Virus genome (UHGV): UHGV-0143838
Length of the DNA stretch: 49,897 nt
Strand: one strand, 5' to 3'
DNA from: a virus
The position numbers and the translations under genes are program-made. The notes beneath the pieces were generated by a model. It was not told the origin of the DNA and ran no database searches. It saw only the letters and a program-made list of their open reading frames with translations. Shown here piece by piece: positions 1 through 8,662 of this stretch; the first letter of the stretch is position 1, and each line of letters begins with the position of its first letter.

Positions 1-211
1 ATAGGATTCAATTCTTTTAGCGTCTCGTCATATCGTTTAAAACGATCAAAAACAATCTTATGATAGTTTTTATCTATCATAAATAGATATTCGATCGATT
101 GTAACAATTAATTACCGATCGATACCACCTGTTCAATCGTCAAAATCTATCAATAATCAATTATCGATCTTTTATATCGATCATTTTATTGAGATCTGTT
201 CACAAAATGAT

Positions 212-1883: not shown

Positions 1884-2365
1884 CCTTACATACATCAGAT
1901 ATCTTAGCTAAGACCTAATCTGATAGTTACCGGTTATTTATACAGGTGTCTGTCAGATTACATCTGGTTTAAATTTCGCTCAAAGTATTTGTTATAATTC
2001 TTTCTTATTCACTTTTTCATTATCACACATCATTAAGAGAATCGTTAAAAAAACCCCACACTTACAAAATGAATAAAAACTTAATAACATTATTACCGCT
2101 GCCCATAGGTACTTCAATGAGTTAAAAGAAAACCTCAGAAAAAATTTCAGAAATAGCATCACCGTTTCATATTTTTTAGACATACTCTTATCCTTTCATT
2201 ATACTTTTATATACATCAATATTGAATAGATGTAATCTACTGTTGATTCCTATACGTATAGCCCATATATAGATTAATGTCTATCAAACACGATTTTTTA
2301 TTTATTGTGATTTTATAAACTTAATGACCAGTACCACCATTAACCCATAAAAATTATGAATAATG

Positions 2366-7924: not shown

Positions 7925-8662
7925 TTGCTGATGCTAACAATTGAAGTAGAAACAGCAAAGTTGACTGTTGGAAACAGTGAATTTTTAATCGAAATACCTA
8001 AATCATTATATGAAGTGATTTCAAGTCAAAATAAAAAGGACCAATTAACAACGATAAAAAATAATGATGCAGAAAAAATAGAGTATTTCTTAAGAGATAA
8101 GTTGTATTATGACACAAGGCCGTCAAGTAAAAGACAAATGGATTACGTAATAGCAATAGCTGAAAAACTAAAGATAAAAATCAATAAAAAAACGCTCGAA
8201 AATACATCCAGTGCGAGTGCCTTTATTGATAAGCATAAATACGAATTTGATAAAAAAGTGGAAGAGGAACATCAAGCATGGATTGAGTATAAAAAGAGTG
8301 ATGAATATAAAATTCTTCAAAAAGTTGAAAGTGCAATAAAAAGACATTTTATAAGATATGGCACAACAAGAAAAAAATTACTTGCACATCAGATGATTGA
8401 ATCTGGCTTATCAATAAATGATATTGCAGATAAAATAGGCGTTACCACAACCACTATCAATAAATATTTAGCTGAAGTGGTAGATATAACTAACCGATCC
8501 ATAGCAAATGAAAGTTCATGGATGATATTTCATTATGTTCTATCAAAGATGGTTTTCTCAAATAAGGAAAATCTAACACCAAGTGAATGGAGAGATACTA
8601 TTATAGCCTTGACCATGAAAAACAGATGGTATGAAGAAACTTGGTTTTTTACAGAAGAATAA
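7925..8662 (+). CDS. hypothetical protein with helix-turn-helix-like segment
   Basis: ORF 245 aa; HTH-like stretch LSINDIADKIGVTTTTINKYL; directly downstream of the GNAT gene. Confidence 0.45.
   Translation: MLMLTIEVETAKLTVGNSEFLIEIPKSLYEVISSQNKKDQLTTIKNNDAEKIEYFLRDKLYYDTRPSSKRQMDYVIAIAEKLKIKINKKTLENTSSASAFIDKHKYEFDKKVEEEHQAWIEYKKSDEYKILQKVESAIKRHFIRYGTTRKKLLAHQMIESGLSINDIADKIGVTTTTINKYLAEVVDITNRSIANESSWMIFHYVLSKMVFSNKENLTPSEWRDTIIALTMKNRWYEETWFFTEE

Follow-up and report, generated by a model that had tools for sequence, protein, structure and literature searches.

Do the GATC and ATCGAT sites crowded at the left edge of the analysed window (the whole stretch of DNA studied, 49,897 bp) belong to a regulatory element and, if so, which genes could be under its control? 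Within positions 44-196, six GATC (start positions 44, 93, 117, 166, 179 and 193) and four ATCGAT (94, 118, 163 and 176) are indeed present, as described in the original prediction, and a seventh GATC starts at 237. The recurring TATCGATC-like unit mentioned there proved to be a loose description: exact TATCGATC occurs only at 162 and 175, and the remaining two ATCGAT sites have CGATCGAT in common, which starts at 92 and 116. With 162 GATC in the window, 0.50 would be expected per 153 bp, or 0.37 at the local composition of 28% G+C. The cluster is the densest GATC group of the window, the runner-up containing 4 in 160 bp, but the strong enrichment initially proposed is only modest on a window-wide scale (P ~0.01-0.03): at least 6 GATC in 153 bp were reached by 3.3% of 300 Markov-1 simulations in a window-wide scan, and a Poisson scan estimate gave about 0.01. 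The significance of the cluster comes mainly from its conservation and its architecture, and not from the number of sites.

The window sequence is that of the E. coli FDAARGOS_1260 chromosome, and the cluster is located between divergently oriented genes of a ROD21-like (EARL) genomic island. In the RefSeq annotation, this island carries int, pilV, pilS, TraD, MobQ, a SEN1982-type lipoprotein, RepL-like, H-NS, AlpA-like and DUF6387 genes. This gene set is the EARL backbone: the P4-like integrase, AlpA-like RDF, type IV pilin genes, TraD, MobA/MobL relaxase and H-NS paralogue that characterise the family, as defined in PMC6035254, were all found, and the same backbone is present in the serU/tcpC island of CFT073 and in ROD21 of S. 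Enteritidis. Matches to the conserved block described below were detected in 681 of the 5,426 complete E. coli genomes, with further copies in S. Enteritidis ROD21, Klebsiella, Yersinia, Pectobacterium, Serratia and other genera. Three papers devoted to EARL islands (PMC6035254, PMC10655114 and PMC6968874) mention neither Dam nor OxyR.

Comparison of these islands delimited a putative switch block of about 200 bp, from window position -12 to 186 (L001 11988-12186). The region is thus cut by the window edge, as originally noted: the block begins about 12 bp left of base 1, and on that side the intergenic region runs 116 bp beyond the block to the divergent lipoprotein gene. The block is kept in 24 island copies, which represent 14 or more genera of enterobacteria (17 collected with a pattern devoid of GATC and 7 via a neighbouring protein), with an overall identity of 70-80%, and homology between island types stops at about 184-198. 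The match of a nhmmer profile built from 17 copies covered 1-185 of the window (E 3e-47) and 11989-12185 of L001. Five of the six GATC of the cluster are near-invariant, each being present in 21 to 24 of the 24 copies, and in the 17-copy set 85% of the GATC columns are invariant versus 35% of the others. The block also contains several short inverted repeats. A scan of the intergenic region against Rfam returned only sub-threshold chance matches (plant miRNA, fungal snoRNA) and no known RNA element.

The conserved letters of the block read ATAG.t...a.CTAT, which is the OxyR consensus. Five half-sites of 15 bp fit this consensus (ATAGnTnnnAnCTAT), with conserved arms and variable centres; they are centred at 39, 70, 101, 143 and 174, so that their spacing of 31/31/42/31 bp corresponds to whole helical turns, and they score 8, 10, 8, 8 and 7 out of 10, respectively. 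Half-site S-1 (32-46, ATCGTTTAAAACGAT, 8/10) has its right arm overlapped by the GATC at 44-47; its ATCG/CGAT arms are invariant around a variable centre, and GATC44 is found in all 24 copies. Half-site A (63-77, ATAGTTTTTATCTAT), devoid of GATC, is the sole perfect OxyR half-site (10/10) of the 49.9-kb window, scores 8-10/10 across the 17 copies scored and aligns with opvAB OBSA or OBSC. Half-site B (94-108, ATCGATTGTAACAAT, 8/10) carries the GATC 93-96 in its left arm, and the TCGATCG at this place is invariant (24/24 copies). The central GATC (117-120) lies between half-sites B and C and is kept in 23 of the 24 copies, being absent only from that of Erwinia psidii. Half-site C (136-150, ATCGTCAAAATCTAT), again devoid of GATC, scores 8/10 in the window, and its counterparts in other island types reach values of up to 10/10. 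Half-site D (167-181, ATCTTTTATATCGAT, 7/10) carries GATC 166-169 in its left arm and GATC 179-182 in its right arm, which are found in 23 and 21 of the 24 copies, respectively. The same alternation was observed in all 17 copies scored: the GATC-free half-sites A and C reach 8-10/10 (9-10/10 in most copies) and the GATC-bearing S-1, B and D 6-8/10. The summed score of the five sites is 41/50, to be compared with 28 for the best unrelated site of the window and 31 for 1 Mb of simulated AT-rich DNA. When the offsets were fixed a priori from opvAB, the block was again the best site of the window (33/40, about 7 sd above the mean).

The Salmonella opvAB operon (STM2209-STM2208) is subject to a phase-variation switch by OxyR and Dam (Cota 2012, PMC3350482; Cota 2016, PMC4856963); OxyR binds its regulatory region in vitro and Dam controls it (PMC4856963). 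The block displays 72% identity to this regulatory region over 131 bp (blastn, E 4e-7 in a 7.3-Gb database), and the Salmonella match sits directly upstream of opvA/opvB. Local alignment to opvAB gave scores of 31-52, to be compared with 11.7 +/- 1.9 for shuffled sequences, which never exceeded 19. The four opvAB sites OBSA-D are placed at -148, -116, -75 and -43, i.e. with a 32/41/32 bp spacing (PMC4856963), and score 10, 8, 10 and 7 against the OxyR consensus; for the island half-sites A-D, the scores are 10, 8, 8-10 and 7-8 of 10 and the spacing is 31/42-44/31 bp. The nhmmer profile matched the opvAB region better in reverse (E 1e-11, 42.9 bits) than in forward orientation (E 7e-9, 33.5 bits). 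Pairwise alignment was likewise better in reverse for 20 of the 24 copies, and better forward for this window, ROD21 and MOD1 (47 vs 31 for the window and ROD21). In the forward register, the distal flank of the Salmonella region has CGTCA.AT in common with the island block. GATC117 corresponds to opvAB GATC3 in the forward mapping and to GATC2 in the reverse one. We conclude that the block is too symmetric for its sequence to settle the orientation relative to opvAB.

These data point to a GATC cluster that is, with good probability, the core of an OxyR-binding, Dam-sensitive epigenetic switch of the opvAB type, forming a conserved module of the ROD21-like (EARL) backbone. Of the regulatory readings originally offered, Dam-dependent phase variation is therefore the best supported, by the homology to opvAB, the shared architecture and the conservation of the GATC across genera. 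If the switch operates like its opvAB homologue, OxyR bound to one subset of half-sites would shield the adjacent GATC from Dam, and the unshielded GATC within the other half-sites would be methylated, OxyR being blocked there. The pattern of occupancy and methylation would then be inherited through replication, giving rise to ON and OFF lineages, and transcription should be activated when the promoter-proximal weak site is occupied. By analogy with opvAB, the contribution of SeqA would be ancillary at most. Since the block lies between divergent operons encoding envelope proteins, island genes are very probably phase-variable.

The target is a separate matter. The original prediction had assigned the switch to the rightward 212-1883 cluster; phase variation itself is retained, but this target is only one of the candidates, given the quasi-palindromic array, a conserved promoter-like element directed leftward and a rightward promoter that varies between island types. 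On the right, the first gene (254-595, + strand, a RefSeq CDS) codes for a 113-aa DUF4755-like protein and has a Shine-Dalgarno sequence, GAGGTGAG, ahead of its ATG at 254; by BLASTP, the protein matches (E 1e-13) a CFT073 DUF4755 protein encoded at the same position. In ROD21, the rightward side carries a DUF4755 gene and a gene for a 125-aa protein. Two further genes follow in the window on the + strand (709-1179, 156 aa, and 1326-1883, 185 aa), whose products did not match any Pfam, NCBIfam or PADLOC family significantly; a promoter-like site is visible ahead of them at 582-610. On the left, a SEN1982-family lipoprotein operon is located immediately beyond the window edge. According to the passages of PMC10655114 and PMC6968874 that cite this result, SEN1982 was scored as required for systemic colonisation of mice. 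Among the flanking proteins, only DUF4755 and a lipoprotein signal peptide were recognised with Pfam, PADLOC and NCBIfam.

A candidate promoter was found on each side. The rightward one, P_R (189-216, + strand), was detected by the promoter scan as a sigma-70-like element (TTGAGA, 16 nt, TG-a-TATGCT), the -35 hexamer of which is overlapped by the non-conserved GATC 193-196. Its predicted start near 223 would place half-site D at about -49, and not at -43. By eye, roughly one copy in two shows a P_R-like geometry (TTGCTA or TTGAGA 8-9 nt after D), which the NRZ, Hafnia and Erwinia types lack; P_R is not conserved across island types. On the half-site D side, non-coding DNA exceeds 1 kb in some island types. 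The candidate leftward promoter, P_L (3-31, - strand), would consist of a -35-like ATGACG (reverse complement of 26-31) directly adjoining S-1 and, after a spacer of 17 nt, of a weak -10 AATCCT (reverse complement of 3-8). Its predicted start near window position -4 would place S-1 at -43, like the OBSD of opvAB. In 24 of 24 copies, this candidate has an invariant GTCAT, an indel-free spacer of variable sequence and a -10 pattern AAT..T; as a promoter it would be weak, since it matches the consensus at 7 of 12 positions and was not called by the promoter scan, its score being under the threshold. Because the array is nearly dyad-symmetric, either direction, or both, may be under its control. 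Control of the leftward SEN1982-family lipoprotein operon alone, from the candidate promoter adjoining S-1 with this half-site at -43, comes near to an even chance. Control of both sides is possible but rather unlikely, and that of the rightward DUF4755-like cluster alone (254-1883), from the putative promoter at 189-216 with half-site D at about -49, is a little more doubtful still.

Could the same conservation be explained otherwise? The block may be an operator array for another protein (a wHTH/RepL-like or AlpA-like protein of the island, or another LysR-type regulator) acting by conventional regulation, the GATC being kept only as part of palindromic arms (ATCGAT/CGATCG) and Dam methylation being irrelevant. 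The arms of the weak half-sites, which read ATCG/CGAT and not ATAG/CTAT, would suit such a regulator, and recognition of conserved palindromic arms by a protein other than OxyR could account for part of the GATC conservation. Among the products of EARL islands are several putative DNA-binding proteins, one of which, SEN1990, has been described as wHTH (PMC10655114). This explanation is nevertheless improbable: the conserved positions reproduce ATAGnTnnnAnCTAT, most copies matching the OxyR consensus at 9-10 of 10 positions of A and C, and OxyR binding in vitro as well as control by Dam have been reported for the homologous Salmonella region (PMC4856963). Moreover, the Salmonella copy is not part of an island and has no island regulator in its vicinity, and GATC117 is outside any conserved half-site and still kept in 23 of 24 copies. 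As to a chance accumulation of GATC in functionless AT-rich intergenic DNA, the modest window-wide scan statistic (P ~0.01-0.03) would leave room for it, but the conservation across at least 14 genera with near-invariant GATC, together with a phased half-site score far beyond the null, makes its probability practically negligible; the comparative data effectively refute it.

Two further explanations consider the block as a DNA-processing site of the island. An oriT at which the MobQ relaxase would nick, the inverted repeats being binding sites of the relaxosome, would be compatible with a conserved non-coding element of a mobilisable island containing several such repeats, and for the ROD21 oriT one possible location that has been proposed is a non-coding stretch of this island part (PMC10655114). 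It is however very unlikely. A far better candidate is found about 100 bp upstream of mobQ (L001 about 8300-8370), where a conserved 12-nt inverted repeat is followed by an invariant G+C-rich stretch of 40 nt; in Yersinia, the repeat differs in sequence and is, by eye, still an inverted repeat. No RSF1010/NES-type nick core was found in L001 with up to 2 mismatches, some 2 kb and other genes separate the block from mobQ, its homologous copies on Salmonella chromosomes are a promoter-regulatory region without relaxase, and a copy in Erwinia psidii is not within an island backbone. A MOBQ-type oriT was consequently rejected for the block, given the missing nick core and the better candidate upstream of mobQ. 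The replication or partition site envisaged in the original prediction, here a replication origin, a SeqA sequestration site or a partition site of the excised island, is in our estimation most unlikely. Both oriC-type origins and SeqA targets typically contain GATC clusters, and a RepL-annotated gene is located 1.1-1.5 kb from the block in minimal islands. But neither a DnaA-box-like 9-mer (up to 1 mismatch) nor a direct repeat of at least 9 nt that could serve as iteron was detected in the block, ROD21 is present in one copy per chromosome, and deletion of its RepL-like gene left the copy number and the amount of excised form unchanged (PMC10655114). In addition, of the four spacings between adjacent conserved GATC, only those of 24 and 13 bp would allow SeqA pairing, and the two of 49 bp are too long for it. 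A replication origin was rejected on these grounds, the absence of DnaA boxes and iterons and a ROD21 devoid of autonomous replication (PMC10655114).

The OxyR/Dam switch being retained as the preferred reading, its relation to the opvAB genes has to be considered. Essentially all OpvB homologues are from Salmonella, and a survey of 2026 stated that opvAB is not present in other enteric bacteria (PMC12902445). Upstream of one distant opvAB-like operon, located on L024, a short contig of metagenome type, there is no GATC/OxyR array. A derivation of the opvAB coding genes from these islands was rejected, and the Salmonella confinement of OpvB together with the L024 operon lacking the array suggests that the switch and the opvAB genes have had separate histories. 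The opvAB switch is functional in E. coli (PMC6677893). More tentatively, the block could be an ancestral, portable and dyad-symmetric epigenetic toggle with two outputs, of which the opvAB switch, so far considered to be without relatives beyond Salmonella, would be a one-sided derivative, a proposal to which we attach a rather low likelihood. In such a toggle, the OxyR/Dam states of an array of five to six half-sites would set two divergent envelope-protein operons, the SEN1982-type lipoprotein operon versus the DUF4755 gene (with the gene for the 125-aa protein in ROD21), in ROD21-like islands across Enterobacterales, including those of UPEC CFT073, Nissle 1917 and S. Enteritidis. The literature searched contained no report of an opvAB-type switch outside Salmonella, and that on E. 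coli, Klebsiella and S. Enteritidis methylomes nothing specific on GATC undermethylation in this block.

In bacteria, few heritable epigenetic switches are well understood; those based on OxyR and Dam are among them and, to our knowledge, only a handful of such loci have been described (agn43, gtr and opvAB). If the proposed reading is true, a conserved OxyR/Dam switch would be a backbone part of a widespread family of mobilisable islands, and the opvAB regulatory region would gain an evolutionary source. The envelope proteins of these islands would be expressed in subpopulations, so that island studies by bulk RT-qPCR or RNA-seq would be confounded. The natural variants of the block could also serve as test cases relating half-site strength and spacing to switching rates.

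Among the known systems, the pap-type Lrp/Dam switches resemble the island locus by heritable methylation at two GATC groups upstream of a divergent promoter pair, but pap has Lrp sites, two GATC about 102 bp apart and PapI/PapB. No pair of conserved GATC about 102 bp apart exists among the block positions and no PapI/PapB-like genes flanking the block are annotated; a pap-type switch was rejected accordingly. In E. coli agn43 (flu), methylation by Dam of the GATC in the OxyR site competes with OxyR binding, giving heritable ON/OFF states. There, however, OxyR is a repressor bound to one site only, where three GATC follow the promoter; the island array, which is not homologous to agn43, is multi-site, upstream and of opvAB-like layout. 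The gtr operons of P22 and of Salmonella O-antigen glucosylation were reportedly recognised as an OxyR/Dam switch by Broadbent et al. in 2010 (cited in PMC4856963). At gtr, OxyR occupies alternative pairs among three half-sites, and methylation alternates between the flanking sites, which carry GATC. On the left of the block, S-1, A and B (weak-strong-weak in 31-bp steps) are reminiscent of this triad in their layout, with three half-sites in gtr versus five in the block. The closest system is opvAB, to which the block has detectable sequence homology: both have four half-sites with the same quality pattern and similar spacing (32/41/32 vs 31/42/31), four GATC at identical 49/24/49 spacing, GATC within weak but not strong half-sites, and a location in AT-rich, horizontally acquired DNA. 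The island block differs from it by a fifth conserved half-site (S-1, with its GATC), by a second GATC in D, by unrelated downstream genes and non-homologous core promoter sequences, and by its position between the divergent operons of a mobile island, whereas opvAB has its array upstream of a single chromosomal operon.

All six GATC sites proposed between 40 and 200 (starts 44, 93, 117, 166, 179 and 193) and the four ATCGAT palindromes (94, 118, 163 and 176) were confirmed. A seventh GATC starts at 237, and the exact octamer TATCGATC (162 and 175) and CGATCGAT (92 and 116) each occur twice. The window holds 162 GATC in 49,897 bp, which predicts about 0.5 per 153 bp; the local composition (28% G+C) predicts 0.37. 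The strong enrichment claimed by the original prediction stood in so far as the cluster is the densest of the whole window; the window-wide scan statistic was, however, modestly unusual, with at least six GATC in 153 bp in 3.3% of simulations (Markov-1, n = 300) and a Poisson scan estimate of about 0.01. The GATC count by itself would be too little to support the finding.

The window is identical to the chromosome of E. coli FDAARGOS_1260 (NZ_CP069438.1, starting at 830109; window position x is position x + 12000 of L001, a locus of this chromosome). The cluster lies inside a 369-bp divergent intergenic region, bordered on the left by a lipoprotein gene on the minus strand (start codon at -116) and on the right by a rightward gene encoding 113 aa (254-595). 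The host island, of about 34 kb, adjoins zinT and carries genes for a P4-like integrase, PilV, a type IVb pilin, TraD, a MobQ relaxase, RepL-like and DUF4756 proteins, two H-NS paralogues, a small HTH (AlpA-like) protein and DUF6387. These genes make up the backbone by which EARL islands (Enterobacteriaceae-associated ROD21-like; PMC6035254) are built, and the arrangement is common to the CFT073 serU/tcpC island and S. Enteritidis ROD21. Window 1889-1982, directly after the 1326-1883 gene, is 90-95% identical to DNA in or beside IS481-family transposase genes of many enterobacterial plasmids and may be a recombination scar bounding cargo. At window ~8894-11542 and neighbouring positions (L001 20894-23542), between the intergenic region and the RepL-like gene, a DotA/TraY-family gene and several large hypothetical genes are found, which CFT073 and minimal island types lack; they could be inserted cargo, a partial type IVB secretion or conjugation module. 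A complete-looking prophage begins directly after the island DUF6387 gene (window ~22770-49897; from 10880 onward in L002, a locus further rightward), with tail fibre, baseplate, sheath, tube, HK97-type capsid, portal and P27-family terminase genes as well as hokD, replication P/DnaT-like, Cro/CI and dicB genes.

The intergenic region matched 681 of 5,426 complete E. coli genomes by blastn, and in 134 of these 681 the match consisted of about 200 bp only (window ~-10 to 185, 60-80% identity) without annotated feature. This conserved non-coding module, hereafter the block, is also present in Yersinia and Klebsiella islands. Copies were gathered by two routes, neither of which selected for GATC. 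One was to scan a genome collection for a pattern taken at the block's left edge (TTGATAGGATTNAATT...TCGTCATAT), which yielded 12 species; the other used contigs encoding homologues of the neighbouring lipoprotein, where seven of eight loci had a block copy. The 24 copies come from at least 14 genera, and within the block the island types are ~66-81% identical to each other (17-copy set, collected by pattern). GATC44 and GATC93 (named by their starts) were kept in all 24 copies, GATC117 and GATC166 in 23 and GATC179 in 21, and GATC193 is confined to this island type; between 33 and 184, 85% of GATC columns were invariant versus 35% of the others (17-copy set). Homology between island types runs ~45 bp past the first GATC on the left and ends at ~184-198 on the right. 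The region is indeed cut by the window edge, the block match beginning at about -10 and the intergenic region reaching -116. Copies were also observed in other settings. A Morganella morganii plasmid outside ROD21-like islands (NZ_CP135145.1, L009 7349-7424) has a partial copy that contains two GATC and one perfect ATAG-N7-CTAT site; the gene of a small HTH regulator follows ~260 bp downstream. In Erwinia psidii (RQRZ01000001.1, L027 2702-2897) the block is accompanied by a SEN1982-type lipoprotein gene, and both are surrounded by toxin-immunity genes (PAAR, pyocin-S and CdiI types), not by an island backbone; this copy has lost GATC117 and GATC179.

The conservation string of the 17-copy set reads ...ATCGTTT..A.CGATC...ATAG.t...a.CTATC...TCGATCG.T...a.cAAT...GATC...AT.G....aa.CTAT...ATC.ttt..AtCgATc. 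By sequence, its conserved letters form 15-bp units that follow ATAGnTnnnAnCTAT, which is the consensus of OxyR half-sites in the opvAB literature (PMC4856963), with conserved arms and freely variable centres. The five putative half-sites are S-1 (32-46, 8/10 consensus, carrying GATC44), A (63-77, 10/10, the sole perfect site in 49.9 kb, no GATC), B (94-108, 8/10, carrying GATC93), C (136-150, 8/10 here and up to 10/10 in other island types, no GATC) and D (167-181, 7/10, carrying GATC166 and GATC179); the M. morganii partial copy spans S-1 to B. Their centres are spaced by 31/31/42/31 bp here and by 31-32/31/42-44/31 bp in other copies, i.e. whole helical turns. The five phased sites sum to 41/50, the next unrelated place in the window reaches 28, and in 1 Mb of simulated AT-rich sequence the sum never exceeded 31.

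Salmonella chromosome fragments were also matched in a plasmid-collection search, with 72% identity along 131 bp (E 4e-7). The matched stretch is located between ykgJ and setB, directly upstream of a pair of small genes that encode 40 and 221 aa. By position, sizes and sequence these genes are opvA and opvB (STM2209-STM2208), and the matched DNA is the opvAB regulatory region. According to PMC4856963 and PMC3350482, this region is an experimentally dissected OxyR and Dam phase-variation switch with four GATC and half-sites OBSA-D at -148, -116, -75 and -43 (10, 8, 10 and 7 of 10 consensus), where OxyR binding creates opposite methylation patterns in ON and OFF lineages and SeqA and HU are ancillary factors; PMC6677893 reports it as portable and functional in E. 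coli. OBSA-D were located in L010, the Salmonella opvAB locus, at 9025-9039, 9057-9071, 9098-9112 and 9130-9144, and the published scores were reproduced. With offsets preset from opvAB (0/32/73/105, +/-1), position 63 was the top of the window (33/40, ~7 sd above the mean). The opvAB region was also detected by a profile built from the island copies (E 1e-11), and local alignments scored 31-52 versus 11.7 +/- 1.9 for shuffles.

As to the direction of regulation, the rightward gene cluster named by the original prediction is only one of two candidate targets, the leftward operon being the other. The array is nearly dyad-symmetric (centres 39, 70, 101, (112), 143, 174), like the opvAB region (L010 centres 9001, 9032, 9064, 9074, 9105, 9137). 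In the latter, ATCGTTATAAATAAT (L010 9067-9081, bottom strand) has 7/10 of the OxyR half-site consensus with GATC3 on its arm; placed 31 bp from OBSC and 42 bp from OBSA, it mirrors OBSB, and the opvAB region is therefore itself dyad-symmetric. No description of this site was found in the accessible parts of the opvAB literature. The profile favoured the reverse orientation (42.9 vs 33.5 bits), and pairwise alignment to opvAB favoured forward for this window (47 vs 31), ROD21 and MOD1 and reverse for 20 of 24 copies.

In favour of a rightward target, the layout published for OBSA-D is matched best by the forward mapping (33 vs 31 of 40), and a candidate sigma-70 promoter at 189-216 (TTGAGA, 16 nt, TG-a-TATGCT), a reasonable match, is followed by a Shine-Dalgarno sequence and the ATG at 254. 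A -35-like hexamer (TTGCTA/TTGAGA) was seen by eye 8-9 nt past D in about half of the copies. The first rightward gene encodes a DUF4755-like product (E 1e-13 to its counterpart at the same position in CFT073), and ROD21 has a DUF4755 gene and a gene for a 125-aa protein on that side. In favour of a leftward target, conservation runs past S-1. A minus-strand ATGAC, invariant in 24/24 copies, directly abuts S-1 as the opvAB -35 abuts OBSD, and is followed by a 17-nt spacer of fixed length and variable sequence and an AAT..T hexamer. This candidate promoter places S-1, A and C at -43, -74 and -147, near the -43, -75 and -148 of opvAB, whereas the rightward promoter places D at about -49. Every copy is next to a leftward operon encoding a SEN1982-family lipoprotein, in some types after a 191-193-aa protein. 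On the D side, the block of E. psidii is faced by no more than an unrelated gene's 3' end, and non-coding DNA exceeds 1 kb in several island types. Just downstream of the candidate leftward promoter, TATCAATTGGTTA (window -12 to 1, L001 11988-12001, minus strand) is conserved in 24/24 copies and fits the IHF core consensus, WATCAANNNNTTR. By our estimate, control of the leftward operon alone is the leading prediction at somewhat below an even chance, control of both sides is less likely, and control of the rightward side alone is slightly less likely still.

The half-site array, its phasing, the GATC in weak sites, the cross-genus conservation and the opvAB homology are established at the level of sequence. 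The phase variation invoked by the original prediction is well supported as a putative Dam-dependent process by this homology and architecture. Dam and OxyR are core E. coli functions. By analogy with opvAB, OxyR would occupy alternative subsets of half-sites; GATC near bound OxyR would stay unmethylated, methylated GATC within weak sites would exclude OxyR, and both patterns would be heritable, giving ON and OFF lineages, with transcription activated when the promoter-proximal weak site is occupied.

An operator for a different protein, its GATC kept merely as part of palindromic arms, seems unlikely: it leaves unexplained the near-perfect OxyR consensus at A and C and the conserved GATC117, which lies outside any half-site. 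The replication or partition-type site also suggested, whether as origin, SeqA or partition site, is not supported, as neither DnaA boxes nor iterons were found in the block and ROD21 is not replicative (PMC10655114). The same paper leaves the ROD21 oriT without assigned position, which would allow the block to be oriT; this is nevertheless very improbable, as the MOBQ nick core was not found in L001 and a far stronger candidate is located outside the window, ~100 bp upstream of mobQ. That strongly conserved element (L001 8300-8370, ~3.6 kb left of the window start; NZ_CP069438.1 ~826408-826478) consists of an inverted repeat, CCCACCTATACACTGC-TAC-GCAGTGTGTGGG, followed by an invariant G+C-rich 40-mer, GTCTACCGACGGTTGCCTGCCGCAGGCTAA; in Yersinia the repeat has a different sequence and is still inverted (by eye). 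It is a plausible oriT candidate of ROD21-like islands. Known RNA families were not found in the intergenic region.

The EARL/ROD21 papers PMC6035254, PMC10655114 and PMC6968874 do not mention OxyR, Dam or phase variation, and targeted searches of the accessible literature found no prior report of the block as such. According to a 2026 survey, neither S. bongori nor other enteric bacteria have the opvAB operon; its analysis of the regulatory region was confined to Salmonella (PMC12902445). In agreement with that survey, the protein search placed OpvB homologues essentially all in Salmonella. A distant opvAB-like operon was observed in Logan contig SRR13870719_5642 (L024 1222-2011), with an OpvB homologue of 37% identity preceded by an opvA-like small ORF and no GATC/OxyR array upstream. 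Switch and coding genes therefore have separate histories, and the lack of the array indicates that the two were brought together secondarily in opvAB. The prediction is specific and cheap to test, and covers the well-studied CFT073, Nissle 1917 and S. Enteritidis.

The predicted switch would connect a widespread family of islands with a model epigenetic system. Like opvAB, it alternates strong GATC-free and weak GATC-bearing half-sites and has a GATC spacing of 49/24/49; unlike opvAB, it lies between divergent operons, carries two GATC in D and includes a fifth half-site. The putative island switch is of wider distribution and somewhat richer anatomy than that of opvAB.
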